From IMG/VR virus record IMGVR_UViG_3300037323_000213, positions 1 through 58,317 of that record: a stretch of DNA of 58,317 nt. The stretch is one strand, 5' to 3'. The notes under the pieces were generated by a model. The model had not been told where the DNA came from. It saw only the letters and a list, made by a program, of their open reading frames with translations, and did no database searches. Within the stretch, counting starts at the first letter, position 1, and every line of letters starts with the position of its first letter. Of the stretch, positions 5,643 to 35,384 are shown in pieces. The DNA is from a virus. Lineage: Duplodnaviria > Caudoviricetes. The position numbers were made by a program, and so were the translations under genes.

Positions 5643-6476
5643 ATGGCCATCCAACTCCAAACAGACCCCCTGCAGGGCTTGAAACTTGCCTGCGACAGCT
5701 TGGCTCTAGAGGGCTTTAGCTTATCGGGCACCCTGTCCTCGCTGGCGGGCTTCATGCCCAACATCATCGCGGGGTTTGCCTCGAGCAAAGTGGCACTCGA
5801 GCTGCCAGAGACCCCGCTGAAGAAGGACCAGAGCAAGTTCCTAAAGCTGCTCGATCAGTTCTCCTACGCCGAGCTGATGGGCCTCAGAGCCTTTCGCCCC
5901 GAGGGCGTCAGAGTCACGTACTTGCAGTACCTCGCGGTGCTGATCCCCGTTGCCACTTACCTCCAAGAAATTCAAAAAAATGTTACGAGTCCTTATCTTC
6001 TCTTTTTGGCTCAGGTGGTGTCCGATAAAAAAGCAGCCCTGTCCACCCGAAGCCAAGACGCCGAGTACCGACAGCTAGATGCCAACCGCGCGCGCATGCT
6101 CTCTCAGCTAAGCGCCCTGTACGCGAGTGACTCCTACGAGGCCAAAACCACGGTTGGCAAGGTGGTGGACCGAAACGCCGACTGGAAGCCGGTGTTTGCG
6201 CAGTGCAACCAGGCAATGGACTGCCTAAAGACCATTGGCCTGGCCTCTCTCAAAGACCAGATGAACCAGTGCACCGACTACTTGGAGACGATCCACGGGC
6301 TGCTCAAGAGCGGGGCCCTGGAGGGCACGACGCCTGAGGTGGTCAAGCACCTAGCCAGTGGGGCGTATTGCATTGCCCAGGAGTTTGAGTTTTTTGCTAC
6401 AACGTACTACCGCGCGCTGGCTTTGAGGGGCAGCATCGACAACACCACCCAGCACGTGCTGGAGACAATGGGCTAA
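5643..6476 (+). CDS. Putative virion (head) protein, phiKZ gp153-like
   Basis: Has ALE motifs (SLALE, KVALE) resembling phiKZ head-protease cleavage sites; lies upstream of UvsX. Confidence 0.5.
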   Translation: MAIQLQTDPLQGLKLACDSLALEGFSLSGTLSSLAGFMPNIIAGFASSKVALELPETPLKKDQSKFLKLLDQFSYAELMGLRAFRPEGVRVTYLQYLAVLIPVATYLQEIQKNVTSPYLLFLAQVVSDKKAALSTRSQDAEYRQLDANRARMLSQLSALYASDSYEAKTTVGKVVDRNADWKPVFAQCNQAMDCLKTIGLASLKDQMNQCTDYLETIHGLLKSGALEGTTPEVVKHLASGAYCIAQEFEFFATTYYRALALRGSIDNTTQHVLETMG

Positions 6477-18810: not shown

Positions 18811-21800
18811 TTACGTCGTGGCTCTTCTCATAGAGACCGGTGCTTTGGGAACAGCGTAGGGCGCAGGCGAGCCGCTTGAGCCCAAGGGGGTGGGCGCTGC
18901 CACAGTCCCCGCGTTTTGTGACACGATGCCAAAGATGGAGCTGAGCACGCTCAGCATCTTTTGCTGCACCTCGACCGATTGGCCCAAGAGCTGCTCGCTG
19001 GTGGCAAACATCTCTTTTCCAAGGCCCGAGGGTTGCGCTGAAGAGCGTTCAGCGGCTGCTGCTTGGGTGGGCTTGAACCCATAGGCGTCTGCCAACGGGG
19101 AGCCCGCCATTTGCGTGGGCGCGCTGGTGGCGGTGTACTTTGCCACAACGGCCTTGGCGGGAGTAAGCGCGCTTGGCGCGCCTTGGCCCGGTAGCTTCAG
19201 GCCAGCAGAAGCCGCCACCGGTGCAGCACCCACTGCGCTGGCACTGGCCAAGACTGCGCCCACGGGTGGCGCTGCGGTGCTCACCGAGGAGCTCCCGCCC
19301 ATCGATTTGAGCTTGTTGTTGACCTTGTCATTCAACACGCTGTACACCTCAGCCAGTGTCCTGGGGCGCCCGTTGTCGTAGAAGATGGCGGTGTTGGACT
19401 TTGCAGCGCTTGGCATCACCGCAGCAGCCGATGCGTCTGGGGTTTTGTCCAAAGCGTTTAAGAACCTCGCGCCCCCCGAGCCGCCCATGAAGTGGCCAAT
19501 GTAGGCCTCGGTCGCCCCAATGGTGCGCCGAGTCTTGTTGCCCAAGTCGCGCATCGTCTCCTTTAGGTAGTGCGCGCCCATGATGGCGTTGGCCTTCACG
19601 TCAAAGGGCGAGGTGCTTGCATCATAGCCGTACTGGCGACCGTACTTGCTGATAACAGCAGACCAGGTGTTGTCCACAAACTGAAACAAGCCAGAGGCAC
19701 TGCTGGTCTTTGCTTTGGCATCGGGGTTAAAGCCCGACTCGACGGCAGCGGTCTTCATTGCAACGTCTGGGTCCAAGCCCACCAGCTTGGCCGCAGCGGT
19801 GATGGTGTCTTTCAGACCCGCGTAGCCTTTGCCACTGGGAGCAGGCACTTTCACGCTGGGGTCAGCGGGCATCGATTTGGCGGAACCCATCTGCGCGGTA
19901 AGTCCCGTGGCTTTTGCACCCACGTTGCCTTGTGACTTGGGCTCGACCTCGCCGTCTGCTCCAGCCGCACCCAAGTTGGGGTTCTTGGCTGCAGACAGGC
20001 CCATTGCCCCGCCCACCGCACTGGCAGCAGCCCCAATCGCACCACCGACCTTGCTGAGGAAACCGGGCGCCTGAGGGGGCGCGGGTGCTGCGGGCGTGCC
20101 CGGTGCAAACGCCACGTTTGCGGTATCCATGCCCGGGGTGCCGTCTTTTTCCTTGTTGTCCACATTGGGCGTGGTGCTCGCGTTGTAAGACGCCATGGCC
20201 AGTGCTTTGTTTCGCCGGTACAGGGATGCGCCCAAAACGGTGCCGTAGCCCCCACCGCCTCGACCCACCCCGCCTTCGATGGCTGCCACAGCCGCGTCGA
20301 TGTTTCGCTTGAAACTGTTGGGGTCTGACTGGATGCCCGCGGGCTCCATGTGCCACGGCTCACCGCCCACGGGGCGGGTAAAGCCGTACTTGCGCATGAG
20401 CCCCATCTTGTCGAGCTGATTCAGTGTGACCGAGTCAATGTCCAGCGCCAAGCCAAACTCGTGCAAAGAGTTGCCCGGTTTGGCCGCCTTCTTGGGGTCT
20501 GCTTTGTGCGCGCGCTCTTGATCGGCGTAGCTGCGAAAGCCACTGTTGACCCCGACCTTGTTGCCTGTCAGTTTGCCGTACTCCTCGACCATGCCGTAGA
20601 AGTGCTTGAGCAGCGCTGGGTTCACCCCTTGCAAAGACGCCTTGCCTTTGAGCTTGATGTAGGACATGGCGTTTCGCCCGTCGCCACGTTCACCCCCGGC
20701 GTGTGCAATGGTGCCTGCGTTCGCACCGCCTGAGCCCAAGGCGGGGGAGGCCTCGCCCTCTTCGCGCGGCTCGATTTCAGCATCGGGTGGCGGGAGCAAA
20801 GGTGCCATCAAAGCGCGGGCGTTGATGGCCTCGCTGTTCTTCTTGCCGCTGATCTTCTCTCGCAGGCGCTCCAAAAAGCCCGATGGCTTTTTGTCTTGGC
20901 CCTTTTCTTTTTCCTCGATTGCGCTGCTGAGCGCAGCGGCCTCAGCGGCGACTTTGGAGGCGTTGTTGGCTTTGGCGCCTCGCCCAGGCGATTGCTTGTC
21001 AAGCTCATCGATCAAGGCCTGGGCTTGTTGGTCGACCTCTTTGACGGTGGTGGGCTTAAAGCCCATGCTCAGCAGCGGGAGCTTGTCGTACTCGTAGCGC
21101 CCCTCGGGGAAGCGCACCGCTTGGGCAAGCTTCTTCTTGTCGTCCTCTTTGAGCGCGTCTGCCCCAGACAAGCTTGGTTTGCCAGCGAGGCGGTCCATGG
21201 CCGTGATGTGGGTCAGAAACACCGCTTTGAAGCGGTTTTGGTACCAGCCAAAGAACAAGGAGAGGTGCTTGTCGTTTTTGTGGTCCAGCCCAAAGGGCGC
21301 GAGCAGCTCTTTGAGCGAGAGGTCCTTCTCCTTGATGGAGAGGGTGCCTTGCTTGGATTGGATGAAGCCCTCCAAGTAGCGCTCGAGCTTGGACACGGCA
21401 GAGGCGTGCTCGGTCACGTCTTTGGGAAACCCGTACTGCACGTGGCGCAGCTTATCAAACGCGTTCAAAGACGAGCGCGCCATCAGGCCCGAGAGCTTGT
21501 TGTTGGCGTAGGAGGCGAGTGCGCCCACGCCGCTTGCCAGCGCCACAGGGGTGCCCAGCTTCTCGGTGAGCCCTGTCTTGTCACCCACCTTATCGGCGAG
21601 GTAGGCGGTTTCGCTTTTGATGCGAGCGGCCTTGGCGCTGTTGACGATGTTGTCCATGAACAGCAAGGAGCCTACCTTCTCAAAGCCCCTTGCGATGCCC
21701 GACTGAAAGCGCTCGGACTTGTCCGCAGCCATCCAGTTTTTATCGTCCTGCTCTTGATCGATTGCGTTGCCACCGGCGCCCACTGCGCCTGCTGCGGCAT

Positions 21801-24800
21801 CGGTGGCATAGCCCAGTGCTGCGCCCACCGCACCGCCCACGGCCACCGTGGCCGCCAGCTTGGCTGCAGCGACGGCCTTGAGCGCCAGCACACCAGCCGC
21901 GCCGCCTGCAACGGCACCGGGCAAGAAGCGCTCCATCAGCCCAGTGCCCAGGGCGCCTAAGACACCACTGCCTGCACCGCCCGCTGCTCCTGCTGCGCCA
22001 GCAGCACCTGCGCCAGCCGCACCGCCTGCACCGCGGGCTGCTGCAGCGGCTGCAGCAGCCCGCTTTTTGTTTTGCTTGTCTTGCAAGGAGTTCTCGCGCA
22101 CGCCGTCGCCGTCGATGTCGCCCGCAACTTTCTTGGGACTGAACTTGTCTTTGAAAATGGCCTTGATGTCTTCCAAGAGCACGACGGTGCGCTCGCTGGC
22201 CACGGCTTGTGCGGTTTGCCTGCGCTCGCTCATGTTTTGGCGCAGGTCGTCTTGGCGGGCTTCTCGGTCCTGGGCCAAGGTCCTGCCCCGGCGCGTGGGC
22301 TGTTTGACCCGCATGCTAAACAACTTGCCAATCGCCCCAAGGGTTTTGCCAACCAGCGAGCCAAGGGTGGTTTTGATCGGCTGGCCCCGCGCGTCGAGCA
22401 AACCCTTCTCAACGTCCTCAAAGCTCAGCACGACTTGGCCGTCCTCGTCCTTGATCTCCCCGTCAATGTCGCTTGGGGTGGCAATGGGTCTTTGCGTGGC
22501 CGAGGAGAAGTAGCCCCCGTTTTTCATCACCGAGCCGTAGAGGGAGACTTGGTTGCTCCCACTCACGTACACATCGCTTGGCTTGGCTGACAAGCCCACC
22601 AAGCGCTTGAACACCGAGCCCACCGCTTTGCCCGCCAGTCGCCCAATGCCAAGCACGAGCCCAAGCGTCTTTTTCTGCACAAACATCGCTGAGCGAAACA
22701 AGGCCTTGCCCACGATGGCGACCAGCTTGAAGGGGTTGAATATTTTGAGCAGCGAGTCGTACACCTGCAAGTTGTCCAAGTCCTCCTCGTTTAGCACGAC
22801 TTGGCCCTCGGTGTCTTCGAGCTCACCACTGATGTCGTCTTGGTGGTAGATTGTCATGCCGCTTTTCCTCAAGCGGTAGTGGCCCTCTTTCAGTTTGCTG
22901 GCGTACAAGCGCGGCTCGCTCTCACCGCGCACGTACACGTCTTTCACTTTGCTGCGCCCAAAGCCCAGCACGCTTTTGATGGCGCGCGCGCTCAGCTTGA
23001 GCGCTTTGCCAATCAGGCGAAAGTTGTAGGCAACCATCTTGGGGGCCACACGGGTTTGGAAGTACCAAAGCGCCCCCACCAGTTTGCCCAGACCGCGCCC
23101 AACCGAGCGGATCACGGAGAACTCGCGCGTCTTGGGGTCGTACACGCGCAGCTGATCAATCTCCTCGGCTTGCACGACGGTGGAGCCCGACTCGTCTCGC
23201 ACCTCACCCGTGATCTCGCTGTGGTGAAAGATCTTCTCTCCCGTCTCAGCCAAGTAGTAGTGACCCTCTTTCAGTTTGGCTGCGTACAGGCGCGGTGTTT
23301 CTTGGCCCTGCAAGTAGACGTCTTTGGGCTCGCCTTGGTTGTCCTCAAAGGCGTCTCGGGTGCTGCTCAGGCCCCGAGCGATGGCGTTTTGCAAGCCCTG
23401 GCGAGACAGGTCAATCTGACCCAACCTCATCTGGCCCAAAGCACCAGTGGCCTTGTTCTTGGCGCCCTCTAAGGCGCTTAGGCTTTGGGTCCTCAGATCA
23501 AAGAACGCCGCGCGCGCCAGCTCAGTGGCGCTTAAGACCACCGTGGGTCCCTCCATCACGTCTCCCGTGATCTCGCTTTGATGCTCAATCACTTTGCCAC
23601 TCAACTTGTCTCGGTACTTGCCCAAGCTCAGTTTGAGCTCGAGCAGGCGAGGAGAGGACTCCCCCTTCACGTACACGTCTTGCACAGCGGTTTTGAATTT
23701 GCCAACACCCTTTAGAACGCCCGCTTTCAACGAGTTGCCCGCACTCAGAATTGCTTTACCAAGGATGCCCGGCTCGCTGTCTTCGTCCGATGAAATCAGC
23801 AAGCGCCCGCTCTGGGACGACCTTCTGGAGCGCTGGCGGCGCGTGCGCTGGGTGGCGTTTGCTGCTGAGGCAACTGCGCCAGTCTCGCCCTCGACGGCCT
23901 CGCTGGCATCGATGCTGCCAGGTGCGCTCAGTCCCTGCGCGCTGGTTGCAGCTGAGGCGCCCAGGAGACTCTCGATTTTGCTCAGCGCCTTGCCAATGCT
24001 CTCGTTGCCCCGGATGGCTGAGCCAAGCGTGGGCGAGGGCTTTCGAAAGCCCTCGGGCGCATTGGGCCCGTTAGGGTCGAACGTGGGCACGCCCTCATTG
24101 CTCAGCTCGTCTCTGCGTCCCCGCTCGCCCCCTCCAAGCCCGCTGTCGCCCGCGCCACTTGGCCCGTTTGGTCCATCCAGGCCAATGATGCCGCTTGCAC
24201 CACCCAAGCCGCCCAGGCCAGCGGGCCCAGCCGCGCCCGCGCCGCTTGCGCCGCCTGTGCCTCTTGTGCCTCTTGTGCCACCACCACCACTGGGTCCACT
24301 TGGTCCCGCTGGTCCACCGATGCCAGACGAGCCACCCAGACCACCTGGGCCCACCCCATCACCAGGGCCAATTGCGCCACCCGGGCCTCCCGCAGGAGGC
24401 AGTCCGTTACTCGTCTTTAGGTAGTGCTCTAAAAGAGCATCGACATCAATGGTTTGTCCGTTTTTGCCCAACACCCGCATGCGCTTTAGCGCTTGACTTC
24501 CCCCCAGATCCATGCGCTGCTGCATGGCGCCTCGCGCGTCCATCACCCCGTCAGCAGCGCTGTTGTGCAGCCTGGAGAAATCCAGTTGCTTTTGGGGAGA
24601 TAAGCTCTCCAAGTAGCTTTTCACCAGTGGGACCAACTCGTCTTGCACCGCTTCGCTCTCGTCTCGGTAAGCACGAAATTTGGCCAAGTTCTCAACGTTG
24701 GCGCTCTTGCCAGCAGCAGCGTTTTTCAGCAGCTTGCGCTTGAGCGCGTCGCGTGCAGCCGGGCTCAGCGTGCTGTTGGCGTCGATGTTGTCTGCCAGCG

Positions 24801-26400
24801 CGTCGAGCTTGCTCTGCGTCCTGCTCACCGCTGCTTGGGGCACGATGTCTTGGAAGATCTTTTTCTTCAAAGACGCGCTGGAGACAAACGCACCGTCGTC
24901 GTGGCTGTACTCGGTAAGCTTGGTGTTCTCGTTGCCCGTGCGGGTCACTTGAATCTCGCGCAAGATGCGAGCGAGGTAGCCTGGGATGATCTCGTTGATG
25001 GTCTTGTCCGTTCGCCGGGTGTCCAGACTGAACGCGTCGCCCATGTCCTTGGCCTTGTAGGCCATGGCCTGGGTGTCTGGGGCCATGTTGGGCACAAACT
25101 GCTGAAACGTGCGCTTGAACCACGCACCGATGCTGGGGTCGTAGTCGTTGTCGCGCGTTGTGCGGTAGTCTTCCAAGGTCCGAGGCGCGTTCTCCAGCGC
25201 GTTCTCCAGCTTGGTGCCGCGCTCGCTGATCTTAAAGCGCTCGTCGGCCCGCCTGGCTTTGCCAATGAGGTCGAATTTTCGGTTGAGGTAGCTGTTCTCA
25301 TCCTTGGCGCGCTTGATCAAGCTCTCAATGCTGGCCTGCGCTGCCATGCCCCCGACCATGTTGCCCGCCATGTTGACCCCATCGGCCCCAGGCATGTCGC
25401 CTGCGCCTGCGGCCTGCTCGCCCATGTCTGTGGCCCCACTGAGGCCCGCGCGAACCCCGCGCGCGACACCCTTGATGCTGTCGAGCACCGAGTTCTTCAC
25501 CCGCTCAAGCGTCTTCTGCACGAGCTTGTTGCGCCCACCAAAGAGGCCGTCACTTGCGCTCTCATAGAACTTGTTGAGCGCGACTTGCTTTAAGCCCTCG
25601 TTCAAGTTGATCTTCACGAACTCTGGGAGCGCGGTGTTCTTGGTGATGTTCGTTAAGAACTGATCTCGCTTGGCATCGCTCTTTTGGCTGTTGGCCAGCA
25701 TGTCTTGCGTGGCAAAGAGCTGGCGGTACTGCAGCTCCAAAGACTTCTTTTGGTAGCGCAGGGTGATGTTGCTTTGGTACTGCTCCAAGCGACTGAGGGA
25801 CAAGGCGCTGGCGTTGGCCATTGCAAACATGTCCTTGTGGCGCGTCATCTCAATGCCTTGGCGCAACTGGTCCTTGCCCGCATCGGTGGCCTTATCAGCC
25901 ACGTTTTGCTTGACCTGGGACTCAAAGATGTCGATCATCGTGGATGATAGCATCGACTCGCGCTGCGCGTCTTGACTGAGCACCGCACTGGCCGCCTCAT
26001 CTCGCTCACTGCTCCAGCGCTTGAGCATCTCGCTCACCGCTTTGGGCACCAGCTTGTTATCGGGCGGGATCAGCTTGACCGCGGCCTTTTTGAAATCGTT
26101 GATGGCGGGTCGGATCTCTTTGAGCCCCCCGTCGTAGATGTCGCGCGCGGTGCGCTTGACCGCTCCAGCGGCATCCATCGTTTGACCGTATCCCTTGGGG
26201 AGCACATCGCGCAGCACGGTCTTTAAGAACGCGGTGTCGCGCAGGCCGTCGGCTGCACCCGTGATCAAGCCCGAGGTGAATTTGACCACTGGCTTTCTAT
26301 CATCGGTGGCAAAGGGGTCTGGGAAATCGAGGTCATCAAAATCGAGCTCAGAGTCCAGATCAAACTCGTTGTTGATTGACTCGGGTTTGTTGGTGGCCAT
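18811..26400 (-). CDS. Giant tail-associated peptidoglycan hydrolase / tape-measure-like protein (phiKZ gp181-like) with an M15 peptidase and a lytic transglycosylase domain
   Basis: About 2530 aa. SLT motif AAVESGFNP...SASGLFQF...AYIGHFMG; M15 motifs NSGFRS, SLHEFGLALD and EPWHME; divergent from the vRNAP genes as in phiKZ. Confidence 0.85.
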   Translation of the reverse strand: MATNKPESINNEFDLDSELDFDDLDFPDPFATDDRKPVVKFTSGLITGAADGLRDTAFLKTVLRDVLPKGYGQTMDAAGAVKRTARDIYDGGLKEIRPAINDFKKAAVKLIPPDNKLVPKAVSEMLKRWSSERDEAASAVLSQDAQRESMLSSTMIDIFESQVKQNVADKATDAGKDQLRQGIEMTRHKDMFAMANASALSLSRLEQYQSNITLRYQKKSLELQYRQLFATQDMLANSQKSDAKRDQFLTNITKNTALPEFVKINLNEGLKQVALNKFYESASDGLFGGRNKLVQKTLERVKNSVLDSIKGVARGVRAGLSGATDMGEQAAGAGDMPGADGVNMAGNMVGGMAAQASIESLIKRAKDENSYLNRKFDLIGKARRADERFKISERGTKLENALENAPRTLEDYRTTRDNDYDPSIGAWFKRTFQQFVPNMAPDTQAMAYKAKDMGDAFSLDTRRTDKTINEIIPGYLARILREIQVTRTGNENTKLTEYSHDDGAFVSSASLKKKIFQDIVPQAAVSRTQSKLDALADNIDANSTLSPAARDALKRKLLKNAAAGKSANVENLAKFRAYRDESEAVQDELVPLVKSYLESLSPQKQLDFSRLHNSAADGVMDARGAMQQRMDLGGSQALKRMRVLGKNGQTIDVDALLEHYLKTSNGLPPAGGPGGAIGPGDGVGPGGLGGSSGIGGPAGPSGPSGGGGTRGTRGTGGASGAGAAGPAGLGGLGGASGIIGLDGPNGPSGAGDSGLGGGERGRRDELSNEGVPTFDPNGPNAPEGFRKPSPTLGSAIRGNESIGKALSKIESLLGASAATSAQGLSAPGSIDASEAVEGETGAVASAANATQRTRRQRSRRSSQSGRLLISSDEDSEPGILGKAILSAGNSLKAGVLKGVGKFKTAVQDVYVKGESSPRLLELKLSLGKYRDKLSGKVIEHQSEITGDVMEGPTVVLSATELARAAFFDLRTQSLSALEGAKNKATGALGQMRLGQIDLSRQGLQNAIARGLSSTRDAFEDNQGEPKDVYLQGQETPRLYAAKLKEGHYYLAETGEKIFHHSEITGEVRDESGSTVVQAEEIDQLRVYDPKTREFSVIRSVGRGLGKLVGALWYFQTRVAPKMVAYNFRLIGKALKLSARAIKSVLGFGRSKVKDVYVRGESEPRLYASKLKEGHYRLRKSGMTIYHQDDISGELEDTEGQVVLNEEDLDNLQVYDSLLKIFNPFKLVAIVGKALFRSAMFVQKKTLGLVLGIGRLAGKAVGSVFKRLVGLSAKPSDVYVSGSNQVSLYGSVMKNGGYFSSATQRPIATPSDIDGEIKDEDGQVVLSFEDVEKGLLDARGQPIKTTLGSLVGKTLGAIGKLFSMRVKQPTRRGRTLAQDREARQDDLRQNMSERRQTAQAVASERTVVLLEDIKAIFKDKFSPKKVAGDIDGDGVRENSLQDKQNKKRAAAAAAAARGAGGAAGAGAAGAAGAAGGAGSGVLGALGTGLMERFLPGAVAGGAAGVLALKAVAAAKLAATVAVGGAVGAALGYATDAAAGAVGAGGNAIDQEQDDKNWMAADKSERFQSGIARGFEKVGSLLFMDNIVNSAKAARIKSETAYLADKVGDKTGLTEKLGTPVALASGVGALASYANNKLSGLMARSSLNAFDKLRHVQYGFPKDVTEHASAVSKLERYLEGFIQSKQGTLSIKEKDLSLKELLAPFGLDHKNDKHLSLFFGWYQNRFKAVFLTHITAMDRLAGKPSLSGADALKEDDKKKLAQAVRFPEGRYEYDKLPLLSMGFKPTTVKEVDQQAQALIDELDKQSPGRGAKANNASKVAAEAAALSSAIEEKEKGQDKKPSGFLERLREKISGKKNSEAINARALMAPLLPPPDAEIEPREEGEASPALGSGGANAGTIAHAGGERGDGRNAMSYIKLKGKASLQGVNPALLKHFYGMVEEYGKLTGNKVGVNSGFRSYADQERAHKADPKKAAKPGNSLHEFGLALDIDSVTLNQLDKMGLMRKYGFTRPVGGEPWHMEPAGIQSDPNSFKRNIDAAVAAIEGGVGRGGGGYGTVLGASLYRRNKALAMASYNASTTPNVDNKEKDGTPGMDTANVAFAPGTPAAPAPPQAPGFLSKVGGAIGAAASAVGGAMGLSAAKNPNLGAAGADGEVEPKSQGNVGAKATGLTAQMGSAKSMPADPSVKVPAPSGKGYAGLKDTITAAAKLVGLDPDVAMKTAAVESGFNPDAKAKTSSASGLFQFVDNTWSAVISKYGRQYGYDASTSPFDVKANAIMGAHYLKETMRDLGNKTRRTIGATEAYIGHFMGGSGGARFLNALDKTPDASAAAVMPSAAKSNTAIFYDNGRPRTLAEVYSVLNDKVNNKLKSMGGSSSVSTAAPPVGAVLASASAVGAAPVAASAGLKLPGQGAPSALTPAKAVVAKYTATSAPTQMAGSPLADAYGFKPTQAAAAERSSAQPSGLGKEMFATSEQLLGQSVEVQQKMLSVLSSIFGIVSQNAGTVAAPTPLGSSGSPAPYAVPKAPVSMRRATT

Positions 26401-26526
26401 TGATAAATCCATTTCTTTGCGTGTTTCTAAGGACCCCAGCAAACCCGCCTTTTGAGGCGGTGTTGGCTGAGGTCTACATAACTTTAAGCTTCCAGCCCTT
26501 GTTTTTTTAAGGAGAAAATTCTACCC

Positions 26527-27975
26527 ATGGCCGTCAATGACATCCCCTTTAACATCGATTTGCTGCAAATCAACGACGAGGACATCAAGCGCATTCGAGC
26601 TGTAACCTCCCTTGATACCTTTGAGGGCGTCACAAAGAACTTTCACCCCGATGGGCTTTTCTCCACGACCACGTTTGGCGTGGCCGGCTCAGATGCGCGC
26701 TATTTGCGCTACGGCTACATTGACTTGAAGTTGCCGGTGATCCATCCCACCATCTACAAGTCCCTGATGGGCTTGCGCAGCTTGTACAGCGACATCTTGG
26801 CGAGCCGAGAGTTTGTGCGCTGGGATGCCAACTTGGCTGACTTCGTCAAGTCCGACGTGGTCGATGGCTACACGGGGTACGCGTACTTCATTGAGCACTG
26901 GCACAAAATCGAGTTCGAGCAGCGCCCAAGCGTCAAGCGCGAGCAAGCAGTCGCGTTCATCGACAAGTACCGAGACAAATCGATGGTTCAGCGCGTGCTC
27001 GTGATCCCCGCGTCCTTAAGAGACCTGGAGATCGATGACAACGGGCGCGAGAGCTCAGACGAGATCAACGCGCTTTACTACAAGCTGATTGCCATCTCCA
27101 ACACCATCAACTTGGCCACCATCAAGGTGAGCCCAGAGGCGTACAACAGCCAGCGCGTGTCCCTGCAAAATACCTTCAACGAGGTCTACGAGTACTTGGC
27201 CGCCATCGTAGAAGGTAAGAAAAACCTGATGATGGGCAAGTGGGCGTCTCGCAAAATCTTCAACGGCACGCGAAACGTGATCACCGCCATGGGCACGGTC
27301 ACGCCCCACCTAGACGCCCCAGGCCACTTGGGCTTTAACGACACCGCAGTAGGTTTGTACCAAACGCTCAAAGCCATCTTGCCCGTGTCTCAGTACCAGC
27401 TGCGCTCTGGGTTCTTAAGCGAGGTGTTCACCTCACCCGGTGCCCCAGCGCTCTTGGTCAACAAGAAGACGCTGCAGTCCGAGCGCGTGCAGCTCAGAGC
27501 CGATGAGTACGACGCGTGGATGACCAACGAGGGGTTGGAAAAATTCATCACCTACTTCCAAGAAGACACGATACGCCACTCCTTTGTGAGCGTGGCAGAT
27601 CACTACGTGGGCTTGCTGTACCGAGGGCCAGACGCCACGTTCAAGTTGTTGCACGGCATCGATGAGCTCCCACCGGGGAGGAACAAGGAGGACTGCAGAC
27701 CCCTTACAAGGGCGGAGCTGCTCTACACGGCCATCTACAAAGTGGCCAACAAGTACCCGTGCTTCTTGACCCGCTACCCCGTTGGGGGCATAGGCAGCAT
27801 CTACCCGAGCAACACGTTTCTAAAGACGACGGTCAAAACCGTCGTCTTGCAAGAACTCGGAGAGGACTGGAAGCCGCTTGGGGAGGGACACATCGCCTAC
27901 GAGTTCCCCACGGACACCAACTTCTTTAACTCCATCTCACCCCACTCGTCTCGACTGGCCATGCTCGGAGCGGAT
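26527..27975 (+). CDS. Virion RNAP beta'-like subunit (phiKZ gp180-like), exon 1
   Basis: HPDGLFS...FG, GYIDL, GKWASRK.FNGTRNVIT and LTRYP motifs; the ORF ends at LAMLGAD, the start of the catalytic ADFDGD motif. Confidence 0.9.
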
Positions 27976-28610
27976 CGTATTTGACGATTAGATAGCTTTT
28001 TAACTGTTTGATACTTGTGTTATGTGGGGAAAGTCAACTTAACAGAAAGTACAGGCATGCTAGAGAAAAACAAACAAATGGACGGGTTCATTCGGATACC
28101 ACTGACCTCAAATCGATATTGCATGTCCTTAGCGGGCAAGGTCAGGGGGGAGAAGATGGCAAAGACGTGTTCAAACCCTGCACGAAGATGGAGAGCTACA
28201 CGCTGCGCTCCACTTGTTTGTTTTTCTTAAATTGTCAAGTTTTGTCCTCACAGGCCGAAATGCCTGTGAGATTCTTCCTTAATTGCTGGAACCCCTCGTT
28301 AGACCACTGAACCTAAGCGGAGCATGAAAATGCACACGTGTCGCAAGACAGGTTTGAAAATCAGTGGGTAGAGGCAACCGTGGACCCAAGGTCCCTTTAG
28401 CAGCTGATGCCCTAAACGCTTGACCGCGCATGGGCCGAGTTCAACGACTAACCCCCACGCAGGGTGTAGGGGCCTAGTGGCCTCGAAACAGGAAGCCTCC
28501 CACGCTGGCCCAGGCCAGCAGGAGGAAGATATAGTCTGGTCTGCATGGAGACATGCAGCTGCCCGCTTGGCGGGCAGCGGTGAGCGTCACGCCCTCACTG
28601 GAACACCACG
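27976..28610 (+). mobile_element. Group I intron 1 (beta' gene)
   Basis: P AATTGCTGGAA (~28280), R GTTCAACGACTA (~28439), S GAAGATATAGTC (~28525); terminal G at 28610; candidate IGS GTCC (28244-47) pairs with exon GGAU through a U.G wobble. Confidence 0.85.
28057..28230 (+). pseudogene. Truncated NUMOD4-type homing endonuclease remnant in the P1 loop of intron 1
   Basis: FIRIPLTSNRYCMSLAGKVR resembles the NUMOD4 motif and the N-terminus of the intact intron-4 HEG; no HNH motif follows. Confidence 0.5.
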
Positions 28611-28622
28611 TTCGACGGAGAT
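28611..28622 (+). CDS. 12-nt micro-exon 2 of the beta'-like subunit encoding F-D-G-D
   Basis: TTCGACGGAGAT lies between the terminal G of intron 1 and the start of intron 2 and completes GAD|FDGD|TAS. Confidence 0.85.
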
Positions 28623-28982
28623 GGACTGCCGCGTCTCCCTAGCCCGAAATGGTTAGTAAAATAATTTCTCTAATTGTCTGGAACCTCTCGCCAAACCACT
28701 GAACCCAAGCGGAGCATGAAAATGCACACGTGCTGCAAAGCAGGTTTGAAAATACAGTGGGTAGAGACAATCAGCAGCCAAGCCCCTGCCTATCGTCGGG
28801 AGACGAGAGATGGGGAAGGTTCAACGACTACTCGAAAGAGGTACACTCAAGTGAGTGGAAATGGGAAACACCCCACCCGCCCACAGGCGCGGGGTGAAGA
28901 TATAGTCTGGTCTGCGCGCAGACGCGCAGCAGCCTTCTTTGCAAGGCGAGACGGGTCTAACGAGCCTGTCTGAACACCAACG
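28623..28982 (+). mobile_element. Group I intron 2 (beta' gene)
   Basis: IGS GTCTCC pairs with micro-exon GGAGAU (U.G at the splice site); P AATTGTCTGGAA, Q AATCAGCAG, R GTTCAACGACTA, S GAAGATATAGTC; terminal G at 28982. Confidence 0.9.
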
Positions 28983-29141
28983 ACCGCATCGCTCTCAATC
29001 GTCTACACCGATGAGGCGATAGAGGAGTGCAAAACCTTCTTTACCAAAAAGGCCTGCTACGTGAACACCGATGGCAGTTTCATCAACAACCTAAACGTCG
29101 ACACAATTGACTTTGTGCTGCGCAACATGACTGGCCCCTAA
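28983..29141 (+). CDS. Virion RNAP beta'-like subunit, exon 3
   Basis: Reads TASLSIVYTDEAIEECKTFFTKKACYVNTDGSFINNLNVDTIDFVLRNMTGP*; the spliced product is 539 aa and ends 6 nt before the next gene. Confidence 0.85.
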   Translation, partial: TASLSIVYTDEAIEECKTFFTKKACYVNTDGSFINNLNVDTIDFVLRNMTGP

Positions 29142-29147
29142 ACGACC

Positions 29148-30929
29148 ATGGCCCTCCTCACCTACCCCGCCTTTTACCGCCGCTTTGGGGTACGCACCAT
29201 CGCTCAGGTCGCAGCACCTCCCACGACCGACCTGAGCTTGCTGAACCTGCCTATGAGTGCGGTGTACCACTACGTCACCTACGACGGCGTAGAACTCGGG
29301 CCACCCTCGGATGACTACTTGTTTCGCCACATCACCAAGCCCATCTTGGTGGGGCATGTCTTGGAGCTCGCCGAGGACAAGGGCAACCCCCGCAAGCTCG
29401 GTGTGAACGTGCAAGCCTTGGTGCGCGACTATCACGCGCGCCACCGCAGGACCCGCCCACTGCGCAGCTTAGAAGTCGCTGACCGAGATAAGACCACCCT
29501 GCTCGTGTACAACTACTGCTTGCTGGCCAAGAACCAGCGCTACGTGCGCAGCTTCTTCACCGAGTACTACAAGTGGTACAACCAGTTCTCCACCGTCATG
29601 CAAACGCTGGCCAGCGTGGCAGCACTCTCTGAGCGCCAGCAGTTCTTGATGCTAAGAGTTCCCGCTGTCATCCCAAGCATGCAGCAGCTGGGCATGGCAA
29701 GCGGCACGATCAACCAAGCCACTTTGAAGACACTGAGGGGCGAGGACGCCTACGTGTTCTTGGAGCTGTGGAAGTGGCTAAGCGCAGAGCGCGCCAGCAG
29801 CTTGTTCTCCAAGATCCCGGCGAACAAACTGCAGCAAATCAACTTGGTCTACCAAGAGAGCGCAAAGTGGTGCACGATCAACCTGGGCGTGCTCAACAGC
29901 TTTCGAGACAACAAGGACGACCCGCTCCTGGCTGAGTACCTAACGCCCGCCAAGCAAGTGATCGATGCCACGCAGCTGCAAAAGCGCGTGGTGCGCATGC
30001 TGATGACGCTGATGGAGGTAAGGACACTGACTGCCAACGCGGGCGAGGACGCTGAGCTGGGTGTGGGTGCACCCACACCATCCAAGCTGGCCCAAAAGCT
30101 AAGCACTGACACGGATGAGGACGAGCTCGGTGAGCGCGCCAGTGAGTTCACCGACGTGCCAGGTCAAAACACGGGCTTTGAGGACGAGGAGGACCAAGCG
30201 CTTAACCTGCCCCAGGAGCAAGCAGCGCTGGCCACCGTGGACGCAGACATCCAACTCGATGAGGACGATGAGGGCGCACAGGCGCGCATCTTGGCTGAGG
30301 ACGCCCAGCTCGATGAGGACTTGGCTCAGTTAAACGAGATCGCGCGGCGCCAAGAGAGTCAGACCAGTGAGGACGAGGCACCCTTGGCCGAGGTGATTTT
30401 GGAGGCCAAAGACACCAGCTTGGAAGACGGCATCCTCTTTGTGTGCGACCGCTTGGCCGATGACGGCTTGCTCTCAGCAGCGGAGTACCGCCGGTTCACA
30501 AAACTGGCCAATGCCTACAAGAGCCTAAGCGCCCCAGACGGCAAAAGCACGCTGGAGGAATTCATCAAGATCCCCCCAGAGGTGCTGAAGATCACCGGCT
30601 CATCCAGCGTGCCTGACTCCACGAGCGTCTTGGACAAAACCATGCTCAAGAGCAGTTTGCTCGACTTTGATCAGCGCTACATCGAGCAGGTGATGGCCAA
30701 GGACACCGCTGCCTTTGTGCTCAACGTGCAAAAGGCAGGCGTTGCTGTTACGGGCTACAAAGTCGAGCGGGTCGATGATGTCTTGGGTGGCTACGAGATG
30801 CACAGCCTGCGCCTAGCACCCGTGGTCGGTGTGCCCTCCACGCTGCGCTTTAAGTTACCAATCGTGCAGGCCGATGGCACTTACTCGTCTAATGGGGTTC
30901 GCTACCGCCTCAGGAAACAACGCGGCGAT
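29148..30929 (+). CDS. Virion RNAP beta-like subunit (phiKZ gp178-like), exon 1
   Basis: 594 codons ending NGVRYRLRKQRGD, followed immediately by a TAA inside the intron. Confidence 0.85.
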
Positions 30930-31411
30930 TAAAACCCCCCTGTGATGTGCTAAAAGGCATGCCTCAGGAAACAGGTCGCCGTACCGCAGAAATGCGGTAC
31001 TAGAAAACCTACCTAACTGCGGGAAAACGTCTACAATCTTGCTGGCTACCACTTGCGCGCAGAAACGCAGCGCAACACCTGTGGAGATAACGCTCCTCAT
31101 CAGGCACGGTGAAAACGCCAGTCCAAGAGACATGATCCGCAACGAAGGCGCTAAGGACCCATAGGTCTAAGCGCTGTGTTCAGAGGCCATCGAAAGCTAA
31201 TTGCGCAGAAACTGCGCATAATCACACCGGTCTAAAATCTGGTGGTGGCTTGGCAACAAGCCATTAAAGCGAGTAGAGTAGGGCGCGCTCTTATCCAGCG
31301 CGTGATCGAGAGATCGCAAGGCTTTTATTGGCCTTGAGCCGAAACGGTAGGCACCCTACCTCCCCCTTTGCGGGGGAGCGGGTGGTGATATGGTCCACTT
31401 TGGATGGGGTG
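30930..31411 (+). mobile_element. Group I intron 3 (beta gene), no ORF
   Basis: IGS GTCGCCG (30975-81) pairs with exon CGGCGAU; P AACTGCGGGAA, Q GATCCGCAAC, R GTTCAGAGGCCA and S GATATGGTCC (compensated P7); terminal G at 31411; the junction restores KQRGD|LPIRK. Confidence 0.9.
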
Positions 31412-32842
31412 CTCCCCATTCGCAAAACAGCCCCAGCAAAGGTGTCGCTCACGTCGTACTACGGCAAAGCGTTCATCAACCGAGGCAAGCGCAAAACGGA
31501 CGACTACGGCTACTGGCTGCAGTGCCAGGTGATCGCAAAGGGCCTGGACCCGCTGGAGAGATCAATCACCGAGCTGGTTGCAGACAATGTGTTCGATCCC
31601 ACCGCAGCAGTCCCTCGGTGCTTTAGCGCCATCGCGGTGGTGGCCAAAAGCTTGGTGGCCCGAGGCTACCAGCTCAACTTTTCTTTGGCCGAGAAGCAGC
31701 AGCTCTACCCGCCCGAGGCCATCGCGGCGCTTGAGAAAAACGGCTCGGTGCTGCTGGGCAAGAACGCGCTGGGTGGCTTCTTGGTGCTCGACACAGCAGG
31801 CACCGTGTACACCGTGCAGGACAAGGAGCTCGTACCCTTTGGCAGCTTGGAGTCTTTTTTGAACATCGACTTGCAACTCGCCCCCGTGGAGTCAGCCGGT
31901 GTCGTGGTGTTTGGTAAAGAGATTCCCATTGGTGTCGTGCTGGGCTACAACTTGGGCTTTGACAAGTTGCTGCGCCTGTTGAAAGTGCAGCCACGGCGCG
32001 TGGCCGCTGGGGCAAGACTGAACTTGCAGTCTCACGAGTACGTGCTCACCTTCAGCGACGAGTCCCTCGTGTTCTCCCGAGACGACCGGTTTGCCTCGAT
32101 GGTGCTGGGTGGGTTTACCACCTACCACCGAACGATCAAGCTCTTTAGCGTGCACAGCTTTGATAAGCGAGGCGTGTACCTAAACGTGCTAGAAGCCAAC
32201 AACCTGGGCACGCGCTACATCCGAGAGCTCGATTTGATGTACCGCATGTTTGTGGACCCCATCACGCGCGACTTGCTCGTGGAGATGAAGGAGCCCACGA
32301 CGTTCCAAGGCCTGTTGCTCAGAGCGTGTGAGATGCTGCTCGATGACAACACGCCCATGGAGCTGGACCCCGCGTTCATGCGCATCAAGGGCTACGAGCG
32401 CATGAGTGGGGCGGTCTACACCGAGCTCATCCAGTCGCTGCGCGCGCACAACGGGCGCTTGGGCAAGTCAAACGCACCAATTGAGATGAACCCCTACGCG
32501 GTGTGGAAACGCATCTCTGAGGACCCCTCCAAGGCCCAGGTAAGCGAGATCAACCCGATCAAGGAGCTCAAAGAGTTGGAGGCGGTCACGTTTGGGGGCA
32601 CTGGGGGGCGCAGCTCGCGCTCCATGGTAAAGCTCACGCGCGCGTACCACCCCAACGACATGGGCACCATCTCAGAGTCCACCGTGGACAGCTCAGACGT
32701 GGGTATCAACATCTTCATGTCACCTGACCCGCAGTTCACTTCGCTTCGCGGCATCTCCAAGCGCTACGACTTTGACAAAGGTGGTGCAACATCTCTCTTG
32801 TCAACCTCCGCCCTCTTGAGCGTAGGATCTGACAGAGATGAT
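31412..32842 (+). CDS. Virion RNAP beta-like subunit, exon 2
   Basis: LPIRK...RIKGYER...GTGGRS...YHPNDMG.ISEST.DS.DVG...SDRDD, matching RpoB-like motifs. Confidence 0.88.
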
Positions 32843-34265
32843 TAACAAACTGTACTGCTATGAACTAAACACACCTATTCTATGAACAAAAGGAGTACGT
32901 GATGAATAGTGTTAAAACTGAAGATGATTTTGAGTTGGTAAAGATCCCAGGATACAGCAGCTACTGTGTCAACCGAATGGGCCAAGTGTTTAACGTCTTG
33001 AGCCAATCCTTTCTTTCTGGCAGCGTGAATCCAGCGGGTTACAGAAATTTCCGATTAAAGAGCGACGTAGGCTATACGCTTACATGGGGACGGCATCGAT
33101 TGCTCGGCTACGTTTTCATTCCGTGCCAAGGCACCATTGAGGGATTGATCATCAATCACAAAAATGGTATCAAAGGGGACGATCGTTTAGATAATTTGGA
33201 ATGGGTGACTTATCAAGAAAATGCTGAACATGCTGGTGCAATGGGGTTAACCTCGAAGTGCCTGCCTGTGTCGGTGCGCAACGTTGATACTGGGGAAGTA
33301 GACAATTATCCCAGTATAGTCGAGTGCGCACGAGACTTGGGCGTGTCAAAGGACACGATCAATTGGCGTGTAAAGATAGGTGAGTCAAGGGTTTTTCCAG
33401 AAAGAAAGCAATACCGGTTGTTTCAACCCGATGCACCCTGGTGCATCGTTGAAGGCACTGACAAGGCGTTGGTTAAAAACGGTTTGCGCAAAGCCGCTAA
33501 CTTGAGAAACGTCCTAGACGGAACAACAAAATCGTTTGCTATGGTGAGTGATTTAGCGCGGTGGATTGACGTACCGGACTCAACCATTACGCTCTGGATC
33601 AACCAACCTGATCAACCGGTGCTGCCTGGGTTCATTCAAATCAAGTGGGCGTGTGACAAAACCCCGTGGCGTGAGGTAATCGATCCATACTTAGAAGCTG
33701 CTCGTTATTCGAAAAAGCAGCCTGTGCGTATTGTTAACCGAGCCACTGGACAAGCAACAATCTTTGCTTCTTCCACGGATTGTTGCAGAGTCATGAACAT
33801 CAAGCCAACACTTTTAAATTACCGCTTAAAGTCAGCCGGGTCAACCGTATTTTCAGATAACCACACCTACGATAAATACCGAGGTGTTTCAGAGCAGTAA
33901 ACAGTTTATGGTCCCACAGGCTGGCAACGGTCTGATGGAATTTTCCTTAATTGACGGGGACATCCTCCAGAGCTTGCACCTACCAAACCACGTTCGGAAA
34001 CTGCGTGGTGGCCAGACTAACTCTCTGGGTACGGTAACAAAGGTGAAGATTGGATAATCCGCAGCGAAGCTCCTACCTATGGCTGTGAAGCCAGACACGG
34101 AGAACGTTCAACGACTATGGCCTTATCAGCCAGTACCTGTCAAAGCGACGGGGAAACAGGAAACTCCCCTAGGTGGGAGAAGATATAGTCTCGACATCCG
34201 AGGGAAATCCCGGAGCAGTGCTTTGGTGCACGGGGACTGGTAGGCGGCCAGTTTCGAAGACATCG
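32843..34265 (+). mobile_element. Group I intron 4 (beta gene) carrying a homing endonuclease gene in the P1 loop
   Basis: 5' AAACTGTACTGCT pairs with AGCAGTAAACAGTTT (~33893-33907), enclosing the ORF; P AATTGACGGGGA, Q AATCCGCAG, R GTTCAACGACTA, S GAAGATATAGTC; terminal G at 34265; junction DRDD|PKRVNF. Confidence 0.9.
32899..33900 (+). CDS. Intron-encoded NUMOD4-HNH homing endonuclease with NUMOD1-like DNA-binding repeats
   Basis: KIPGYSSYCVNRMGQV (NUMOD4), RHRLL, INHKNGIKGDDRLDNLEWVT..EN..HA (HNH), YPSIVECARDLGVS (NUMOD1); AAGGAG RBS; more AT-rich than the flanking exons. Confidence 0.92.
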   Translation: MMNSVKTEDDFELVKIPGYSSYCVNRMGQVFNVLSQSFLSGSVNPAGYRNFRLKSDVGYTLTWGRHRLLGYVFIPCQGTIEGLIINHKNGIKGDDRLDNLEWVTYQENAEHAGAMGLTSKCLPVSVRNVDTGEVDNYPSIVECARDLGVSKDTINWRVKIGESRVFPERKQYRLFQPDAPWCIVEGTDKALVKNGLRKAANLRNVLDGTTKSFAMVSDLARWIDVPDSTITLWINQPDQPVLPGFIQIKWACDKTPWREVIDPYLEAARYSKKQPVRIVNRATGQATIFASSTDCCRVMNIKPTLLNYRLKSAGSTVFSDNHTYDKYRGVSEQ

Positions 34266-35384
34266 CCCAAGAGAGTTAACTTCATCGCAATTCAGCAAGA
34301 GCACTCCATCTCTTGCGTAAGCTACAAGCAGTTCACGGTGCGCACGGGCTACGACAGCGTGATTGCTCACCGTACCTCCAGCATGTTTGCGTTCACCGCC
34401 AGAAAGCCCGGCACCGTGAGGTCCGTTGAGGCCAAGGGCATCATTGTGGACTACGACGATGAGACAGTACAAGGCTATGAGCTTGGGCGGCGCTACGGCA
34501 ACGCCGCAGGCCTCACGGTGGCGCACAACATCGTAAGCTCACTGCGGGTGGGCGATAAGGTGGCGGTGGGCGATGTGGTGTGCTACAACGACGGCTTCTT
34601 TGAGCCCGACTTCTTTAACCCCAAAGAGGTCGTATGGAAGAACGCCACCAACGTGAAGACCGTTTTGTGGGAGTCAGCGCAAACGCTCGAAGACGCCTCA
34701 CTCATCTCCAAGCGCGTGGGAGATAAGCTCAGCACGAAGATCACGAAGGTGAAGAACATCGTGCTTACGTTTGACCAAAGCATCTCGCGCTTGGTGAAGG
34801 TGGGCTCAGCGGTCGAGGCAGACACCATTTTATGCATCATCGAAGACGCCATCACCGCAGACAACAAGCTCTTTGATGAGCAGTCCTTGGACACGCTGCG
34901 CGCATTAAGCGCGCAGACGCCGCGCGCGCACGTCAAAGGCGTTGTTGAGAAGATCGAGGTGTTCTACCACGGTGACAAAGACGACATGTCTGAGCCACTC
35001 AAGGCGCTGGCGAGTAGCAGCGACAAAGAGCTCAAGCAGTTCGCCCAAGCCACGGCGAGGACGGTGTACACGGGCAGCGTGGATGGGGGCTTTCGCATCG
35101 AGGGCAACCCCCTCGTGCTGGACTCACTGGCGGTGCGCATCTACATCACCTCCACGGTGGGGGCGGGCTTGGGTGACAAGGGTGCTTTTTGCAACCAGCT
35201 CAAAACGGTGTTCTCCGAGGTGATGGATGACGACTTGATCAGTGAGAACGGCGACATCATCGATGCCGCCTTTGGGGGCACGTCCATTGCTGCGAGGATC
35301 GTCAACAGCCCAGACATTATCGGAACCACCAACACGCTCCTGAAGGTGATCACAAAGAAAGCGCTTGCGCTGTACCGAAGCTAG
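34266..35384 (+). CDS. Virion RNAP beta-like subunit, exon 3
   Basis: PKRVNF.AIQQ.H...VRTGY...TLEDA.LIS...GDK...NQLKTV; the spliced product is about 1443 aa. Confidence 0.88.
   Translation, partial: PKRVNFIAIQQEHSISCVSYKQFTVRTGYDSVIAHRTSSMFAFTARKPGTVRSVEAKGIIVDYDDETVQGYELGRRYGNAAGLTVAHNIVSSLRVGDKVAVGDVVCYNDGFFEPDFFNPKEVVWKNATNVKTVLWESAQTLEDASLISKRVGDKLSTKITKVKNIVLTFDQSISRLVKVGSAVEADTILCIIEDAITADNKLFDEQSLDTLRALSAQTPRAHVKGVVEKIEVFYHGDKDDMSEPLKALASSSDKELKQFAQATARTVYTGSVDGGFRIEGNPLVLDSLAVRIYITSTVGAGLGDKGAFCNQLKTVFSEVMDDDLISENGDIIDAAFGGTSIAARIVNSPDIIGTTNTLLKVITKKALALYRS

Follow-up and report, generated by a model that had tools for sequence, protein, structure and literature searches.

Short exons enclosed by self-splicing introns have been described in several settings. 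In the Staphylococcus phage Twort, orf142 carries three group I introns, and the 23-nucleotide (nt) exon between introns 2 and 3 is subject to exon skipping (Landthaler and Shub 1999, as quoted in PMC10136302), while tandem group I introns surround a 34-nt exon in the 23S rRNA of Coxiella (PMC10136302). Organelle mini-exons of 1 to 18 nt include 3-bp exons in fungal mitochondria, an 18-nt candidate in cob of Ophiostoma and a 1-nt exon in placozoan cox1 (PMC12308204; PMC5436844). Group I introns are also known from RNA polymerase (RNAP) genes of jumbo phages: in the Pseudomonas phage PhiPA3, the HNH endonuclease gp210 lies in a group I intron of the virion RNAP beta-subunit gene, beside conserved aspartates (PMC11620839), and the RNAP genes of AR9 and MarsHill-like jumbo phages are disrupted by introns (bioRxiv 10.1101/2020.12.14.422802). 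Here, we analyzed the gene for a beta'-like RNAP subunit on the IMG/VR contig IMGVR_UViG_3300037323_000213, the whole of which (58,317 bases, an estimated 22% of a phage genome) is called the window below. In this gene, two group I introns very probably enclose an exon of 12 nt that codes for part of the catalytic center.

The motif DFDGD provides the three Mg-binding aspartates of multisubunit RNAPs. In the window, (N)ADFDGD with its three aspartates is present in one polypeptide only after conceptual splicing of ...LGAD, FDGD and TASL (Table 1). The open reading frame (ORF) of exon 1, starting at position 26527, has the C-terminal reading ...SPHSSRLAMLGAD; unspliced, it extends over 26527..27984 and reads ...HSSRLAMLGAD followed by RI and a stop codon. 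The last exon 1 codon, GAT, is the first aspartate of DFDGD. The frame from position 28983 opens with TASLSIVYTDEAIEEC (TASLSIVY...) and closes with ...NMTGP and a stop codon, the translation of 28983-29142 being TASLSIVYTDEAIEECKTFFTKKACYVNTDGSFINNLNVDTIDFVLRNMTGP up to the stop. The conceptually spliced mRNA comprises 539 codons and codes for ...LGADFDGDTASL..., and an alternative register of the junctions with the same product is excluded, as the bases flanking each junction differ. An initial annotation of the contig had placed the end of ...LGAD at 27975, FDGD at 28611-28622 and the resumption of the frame at 28983, all of which proved correct to the base. It had also predicted that gene callers miss the micro-exon, and a truncated beta' without the catalytic motif is indeed what is reported.

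Intron-free homologues contain the same residues without interruption. Burkholderia phage FLC9 gp41 reads KLGADFDGDTASANVTYSDES, within the longer stretch ...KLGADFDGDTASANVTYSDESIKE..., and is colinear over LGADFDGDTAS; the homologue of Ralstonia phage RP31 reads RLGADFDGDTASGNIAYSDEA, and that of Xanthomonas phage Xoo-sp14 is likewise uninterrupted over LGADFDGDTAS. Given this colinearity, exactly four residues are absent between the two window ORFs. The same gap is seen in the profile PHROG 2986 ("RNA polymerase beta subunit," 539 positions), in which exon 1 corresponds to positions 3-484 (E 3e-170) and exon 3 to positions 489-538 (E 3.4e-10), leaving positions 485-488 uncovered. Exon 3 shows 52% identity to residues 488-539 of FLC9 gp41. 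A tblastn search with the exon 1 protein matched 313 phage records, with FLC9 gp41 as the best match (46% identity), and the matches are annotated as RNA polymerase beta prime or virion-associated RNAP subunit. From the annotation of these relatives and the gene order, with a neighboring gene for a protein of 2543 amino acids that has a transglycosylase domain, the enzyme is a putative virion polymerase, and its subunits in the window are the presumed equivalents of phiKZ gp180 and gp181. The match to Pfam RNA_pol_Rpb1_1 was weak (E 0.001, under the cut-off), and a phmmer search of FLC9 gp41 against the PDB sequences gave 0 matches to solved structures.

A degenerate pattern for FDGD, TTYGAYGGNGAY, matches the 58-kb window a single time on both strands, at 28611. 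Shuffled sequences contain a mean of 0.20 matches on both strands, and about 0.002 would be expected on the right strand of a 1-kb spacer. A chance match of the 12-mer at 28611-28622 is ruled out.

We consider it very probable that two splicing-competent group I introns flank a genuine 12-nt exon. In the proposed mechanism, a phiKZ-type beta' gene would be interrupted by tandem introns, intron 1 after the first Asp codon of DFDGD and intron 2 after the last. Intron 1 would find its 5' splice site through GGAU/GUCC pairing and an 11-bp helix closing a loop of ~240 nt with a decayed HNH gene, and intron 2 would do so by pairing the micro-exon end GGAGAU with its guide GUCUCC. Two independent guanosine-initiated self-splicing reactions would then link the micro-exon to exons 1 and 3. 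Since one aspartate is located on exon 1 and two on the micro-exon, both splicing events would be needed for an active enzyme, a claim of the initial annotation that the comparative evidence upholds. The sequences themselves show the anatomy of the locus, the covarying family structure, the recurrence in other phages and the covariation of P1 with the micro-exon, whereas splicing, its order and its efficiency are inferred.

Intron 2 was clearly recognized by the Rfam group I intron model RF00028, which matched 28613-28929 over its full length (1-253) with 79.3 bits (E 1.5e-18), above the gathering score of 50. It forms 54 of the 60 consensus pairs of its family (see below). The guide GUCUCC (28633-28638) is located directly 5' of P2, and the P1 helix that it forms places a U.G pair at the splice site. 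This GGAGAU/GUCUCC pairing, already noted in the initial annotation, is borne out by compensatory changes across related loci (designated by L numbers). GGAGAU/GUCUCC is present in the window, L103 and L178, GGCGAU/GUUGCC in L011, L102, L135 and L132, GGUGAU/GUCACC in L180, and GACGGU/GCUGUC in L105. The intron 2 guide tracks the Gly wobble base in 8/8 loci with twin introns and in L132, which is interrupted at the second site only. Three Watson-Crick pairs (A-U, C-G and U-A) occur at one position, and the pair switches even between the close relatives L178 and L180. This covariation is the strongest available evidence and argues for a P1 on the micro-exon and for selected splicing.

The initial claim of two group I introns with a terminal G was confirmed in that both introns end in G and belong to one covarying family. 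They share all core motifs and 66-69% identity (66% over the core), and an intron-core tree places them as each other's closest relatives. For structural analysis, 12 intron cores were aligned, comprising the two window beta' introns and ten more of the same family, nine of which come from the homologous site in related contigs and L011 and the tenth from the beta gene of the window. RNAalifold recovered P2, P3, P4-P6, P7.1, P7.2, P8 and P9, and P7 was added to the consensus as a pseudoknot. With P7 included, 92.1% of cells pair across the 12 introns, a value somewhat inflated by the derivation of the consensus structure from the same sequences, compared to 36.6-44.3% when the partners are slid by 1-3 columns. 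Compensatory changes were found in 44/60 pairs, and 0/500 shuffles came up to the values of the real alignment. Both the slid controls and the variety of pair types speak for a genuine structure signal in the family. P7 (GACUA/UAGUC) is identical in both window introns and covaries in the first intron of L011 and in L008.

Subgroup IA introns, of the T4 td and Twort type, have the extra helices P7.1 and P7.2 between P7 and P3'. In the alignment, helices 9 and 10 (columns 267-281 and 285-302) are located between the P7 5' strand and P3', with 8/8 pairs compensated. The introns appear to belong to subgroup IA, a label taken from these helices and not from a subgroup-specific model. The exons preceding the two introns end in ...GGAU and ...GAGAU, and the introns themselves in ...CCACG and ...CAACG. 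All four intervening sequences of the window polymerase genes, including two in the adjacent beta gene, follow GAU (GCGGAU, GGAGAU, GGCGAU and GAUGAU), which matches the GUC start of the guides.

Recognition of intron 1 by RF00028 was weaker, with 32.9 bits at 28226-28558 (E 2.4e-6 in a local search, 1.2e-4 in a search of the whole window). The check with group I covariance models suggested in the initial annotation was thus passed by intron 2, while intron 1 stayed under the gathering score, which is a curation cut-off and no structural criterion. The low score can be traced to a hairpin, GGACC-CAA-GGUCC, inserted between P5 and P4', and to the P1 strands lying ~250 nt apart. The hairpin is also present in L065, in other letters that still pair. 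In addition, intron 1 forms 58/60 pairs of the 12-member consensus structure, and its P7 is intact. Its long P1 is part of the centroid fold of 27962-28285 (z = -3.29). The guide GUCC (28244-28247) pairs with the exon end GGAU and gives a U.G pair at the splice site, and GU(C/U)C is found just 5' of P2 in all 12 script-scorable family introns and, by eye, in the first intron of L011. No convincing candidate for an exon-guide helix longer than GAU/GUC was found at a conserved position; an 8/8 match at intron 1 position 241 (GUUUGUUU) was rejected, as it consists largely of G.U pairs and relatives lack it.

The initial annotation further regarded the 12 nt as fully used, the last six bases in P1 of intron 2 and the first six in P10 of intron 1. 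The former part stands. The latter, a pairing of UUCGAC with GUCAAG (28234-39), was not borne out: it contains an internal mismatch and is no better than chance, and GUCAAG forms part of the 11-bp P1 extension with the intron's own 5' end. Among the family loci, a convincing P10 for intron 1 (7 bp, adjoining the guide) was found only in L135.

Table 1. Elements of the interrupted beta'-like RNAP subunit gene, by position in the window
Feature	Position	Strand	Remarks
Exon 1, RNA polymerase beta'-like (N-terminal) subunit gene	26527..27975	+	483 codons, end ...LGAD
Intron 1, predicted group I	27976..28610	+	635 nt; after U, ends in G
Distal P1 helix of intron 1, 5' strand	27979..27989	+	Pairs 11/11 with 28230-28240; closes insertion-bearing loop
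Putative HNH homing-endonuclease gene remnant, P1 loop of intron 1	28057..28230	+	N-terminal ~33 codons recognizable
P1 extension 3' strand (28230-28240), UUU spacer and guide GUCC (28244-28247)	28230..28247	+
Micro-exon TTCGACGGAGAT	28611..28622	+	Codes for FDGD, second and third catalytic aspartates
Intron 2, predicted group I	28623..28982	+	360 nt; without ORF, ends in G
Guide GUCUCC of intron 2	28633..28638	+	6-bp P1 with micro-exon end GGAGAU
Exon 3	28983..29142	+	52 codons plus stop, TASLSIVYTDEA...NMTGP

Furthermore, we analyzed whether the arrangement exists in other phages, using 160 related loci. Among the 80 viral loci kept from 132 relatives found by profile search, D[FYH]DGD is intact in 64, and in 15 an interruption directly follows the first D, with a shift of one base downstream in L055 and L075; the remaining locus, L081, stops two codons after DFDGD. 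For metagenomes, 80 of 167 relatives found were used. The motif is intact in 50, and a script flagged 29, of which 27 have no in-frame motif and two end soon after DFDGD; one more is cut by a contig end. The automatic class of 27 includes loci that are uninterrupted at the motif, such as L131, which breaks far upstream, and L157, which is full length with a motif missed by the pattern. Inspection by hand covered 24 flagged metagenome loci and L081.

Twin introns around a 12-nt exon were found in L011 (same contig as L038), L102, L103, L135, L178 and L180. In L105, the second intron is located one codon earlier, between DFDG and D, so that the micro-exon TTCGACGGT (6417-6425) has 9 nt and codes for FDG, the last D being on exon 3; the guide GCUGUC of this intron matches the exon end GACGGU. 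Exon 1 of these loci shares 41-57% identity with that of the window, and each locus has two matches to RF00028, all at or above the gathering score except the second in L180 (43.5 bits). The micro-exons vary in synonymous third positions only, apart from a change of F to Y (TTC to TAC) in L135, and both residues are found at that position in intact homologues. In L132, only site 2 is occupied by an intron. The exon of L101 ends as in L132, and the contig stops before exon 3 is reached; L168 stops just after DYDGD, where its contig ends, and the guide sequence was not found. With these seven other contigs of uncultured phages, the twin arrangement is not unique to the window.

Additional insertions were observed around the motif. 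One base after site 1, following GATT, L055 and L075 contain different introns with DUF723 or zinc-ribbon ORFs, and further apparent insertion positions follow GADF or DFD, precede the first D, or lie at the end of DFDGD or slightly past it (L118, L127, L119/L120, L121 and L081). At least four or five different insertion positions thus apparently fall within the DFDGD codons. Among cultured phages, a tblastn search with the 103 C-terminal residues of FLC9 gp41 gave no two-piece match in the best 60 of 226 records. In the phiKZ-like Pseudomonas phages OMKO1, U1B and "Koomba boorn-mokiny kep-wari Wadjak 1," this query matches unannotated DNA from residue 42 only, just before LGADFDGD, while other phiKZ-like records match residues 1-100. 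The start at residue 42 may mark an insertion just upstream of the motif.

Several observations weigh against a working pair of introns around the micro-exon. The score of intron 1 lies below that used for curation of RF00028, and its pairing with the exon is short (4 bp in the window, 3 bp conserved family-wide), and by eye the fourth pair, at position -4, shows no covariation with the wobble base of Ala or Gly across the family. The best contiguous P10 run of this intron is 3 bp, which 73% of shuffles equal. In L103 (~6178) and L135 (~4830), intron 1 ends in A and not in the expected G. The tail lengths of these two introns match those of their relatives, and the A may stem from a sequencing error, from defective copies or from a 3' splice site of unusual type; given the A ends, some copies of the twin arrangement may be defective. 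The six runs listed with the sequence are all DNA metagenomes. The search for a second gene copy in the phage's own genome covered this contig (~22% of the genome), and another intact copy may exist elsewhere. Finally, a near-identical block of ~110 nt in both introns could, by analogy to Twort, favor exon skipping.

Skipping as the major outcome, with the twin introns cooperating or 27976-28982 being removed as one unit, is the alternative that survives best. Because the 12 nt correspond to four codons, it would yield an in-frame, catalytically dead beta' without FDGD, which could be waste or could act as a regulatory or dominant-negative isoform. Twort orf142 skips its 23-nt exon between highly similar introns, and both products are formed when a 24-nt exon is flanked by two identical Tetrahymena introns (PMC10136302). 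The window introns resemble these cases in their close relationship and shared block, and the deletion would stay in frame. In contrast, the micro-exon is under coding constraint and its guide pairing covaries in all eight twin loci, which is sensible only if inclusion is selected, and we regard predominant skipping as improbable.

Still less probable is a decaying locus, with splicing lost in at least one of the introns and the subunit made from another copy, or with a defective phage variant. The score of intron 1, the remnant state of its endonuclease gene, the A ends in L103 and L135 and the status of the contig as a genome fragment would fit such decay. However, the frames of exons 1 and 3 are open, with an end-to-end match to PHROG 2986, intron 1 keeps nearly all consensus pairs and an intact P7, and both window introns end in G. 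The same sequence is also present in a second salt-lake sample (identical pieces 28526-28703 and 28690-29008), and nearly the same in a glacier sample (28589-28820, three differences). Fixed introns usually lose their endonuclease gene with splicing unaffected. An assembly artefact, in which a duplicated intron or two strains were joined into a false tandem, has next to no probability: the ~110-nt repeat and the many other copies of related introns in the samples could favor it, but overall identity between the introns is only 66-69%, the stretch 26527-29142 is contained with 0 differences in an independent Logan contig (15,576 nt) of the probable source run, the micro-exon is bridged by contigs of the two other samples (28526-28703 and 28589-28820), and the twin layout occurs in seven further contigs from other samples.

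If two functional introns indeed enclose the micro-exon, the question of their origin arises. The intron-core tree was calculated with FastTree without support values, and four introns (both of L103 and the second of L178 and L180) were left out since the motif filter missed their P3, so that it gives a hint only. In this tree, grouping is by genome for the twins of the window, L135 and L105, and by site for the introns of L011, L102 and L132. This pattern fits gene conversion between neighboring introns as well as repeated local duplication of an intron into the second GAU site, at a distance of 12 nt. It is also conceivable, though in our view unlikely, that the twin layout, which would have arisen more than once, is maintained by selection in an arms race at the active site and is no passive accident. 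The occupation of both GAU sites would then present a broken DNA target to homing endonucleases of co-infecting phages, such as those encoded by the HNH genes in relatives' introns at the same site, and would protect the catalytic codons; the twin ribozymes might in addition allow tunable skipping to an in-frame subunit without FDGD.

The extra ~250 nt in the 5' part of intron 1 represent a loop insertion, with the helix enclosing ~240 nt. Residues 15-47 of the ORF 28015-28230 align with residues 1-33 of a 597-aa (amino acid) HNH_3 ORF in the L012 intron (36% identity, pairwise E 1e-5), which occupies the same position as the remnant. Neither of the two short intron 1 ORFs has a Pfam match, the intron contains no ATG-starting ORF of at least 60 aa, and the remnant did not align with the L061 endonuclease. 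In a glacier-metagenome variant, 28056-28210 (155 nt) are replaced by 38 nt. On the basis of the L012 alignment, the insertion is most likely a decayed homing-endonuclease gene. ORFs of 99 and 55 aa overlap intron 2; the domain scan covered the intron 1 ORFs. Both beta' introns of the window look immobile on their own.

Parts of the intron cores were also detected outside the polymerase genes. A 38-nt segment from the P7-P9 core of intron 1 (28526-28563) is 100% identical in 53 phage records, mostly V5-like E. coli and Campylobacter phages, under or beside terminase and endonuclease VII genes. In cultured phages, megablast found only this segment and blastn only core segments, e.g., near PHIKZ072.1. 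Other contigs in the same metagenomes match the intron cores only and then diverge (loose ends at 28525/28559 and 28768; stretch 28277-28830), which indicates that the intron family is spread over other genes or phages there.

The beta-subunit gene downstream (29148-35384, aligned to FLC9 gp40) is cut after ...GSDRDD (GATGAT) by a 1416-nt intron (32844-34259) of the same family, which matches RF00028 with 49.8 bits at 33876-34213 and ends in ...CGAAG. It harbors an apparently intact HNH endonuclease ORF (32899-33900; HNH_3, E 2.3e-8; NUMOD1, E 1.5e-5). A second intervening sequence of ~476 nt (30930-31405) lies between ...RKQRGD (GGCGAT) and GVLPIRK. Rfam gave no match at E values up to 0.05; inspection by eye showed a guide GUCGCC that complements the exon end, a P2-like hairpin behind it and a terminal G. 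The sequence probably represents a divergent group I intron. On the other side of the beta' gene, a divergent gene on the minus strand (18811-26442) encodes a 2543-aa protein with tail-fibre (phrog_3201), transglycosylase (phrog_4067) and endolysin-like (phrog_13118) parts, in a position that resembles that of the giant virion lytic protein gene in phiKZ-like phages.

The micro-exon seems to be defined by little more than the 6-bp P1 and may serve as a minimal natural case for exon definition, exon skipping and ribozyme engineering. As interrupted loci are common, surveys of jumbo-phage polymerases will miscount "inactive" subunits. The DFDGD motif as a hot spot of mobile elements also bears on the competition of intron endonucleases between co-infecting phages.

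The literature searches yielded no micro-exon, either for phage polymerase genes or for DFDGD; supplementary intron tables (2513 introns, PMC12880540) may list short exons. The initial annotation knew of no catalytic micro-exon in a phage. This holds for the sources as far as available to us, yet the short exon as such has a precedent in the 23-nt exon of Twort orf142 (PMC10136302). To our knowledge, an exon of 12 or 9 nt between two group I introns is apparently undescribed for a protein gene of a phage or bacterium, 23 nt being the shortest precedent cited.

Introns in RNAP genes of phiKZ-like phages were correctly cited as known in the initial annotation, as PhiPA3 gp210 shows (PMC11620839). 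As in PhiPA3, AR9 and MarsHill, a multisubunit RNAP gene of a jumbo phage is invaded by group I introns beside catalytic residues, and as in PhiPA3, HNH genes are found in introns, here in those of relatives and of the window's own beta gene. The portions of these reports at hand describe single insertions or multiple introns with ordinary exons and mention neither a micro-exon nor an intron at the beta' DFDGD. With organelle mini-exons, the locus shares a very short exon between self-splicing introns that annotation pipelines miss. Those exons belong to organellar or rRNA genes, whereas this one is located in a protein-coding gene of a bacterial virus and shows P1-exon covariation across genomes. 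The closest counterpart is Twort orf142, likewise a phage protein gene with tandem, highly similar introns of the subgroup IA type and a tiny exon that serves one intron as its 3' exon and the following one as its 5' exon. Splicing and skipping were demonstrated there by reverse transcription-PCR, while the present arrangement was read from DNA sequence. Unlike the 23-nt exon of Twort, the exon has 12 nt here and 9 nt in L105, codes for two of the three catalytic aspartates of a multisubunit RNAP and recurs in phages that are only 41-57% identical in the host gene. The locus involves no new principle and is an extreme, recurrent case of a known one, with clean natural covariation.

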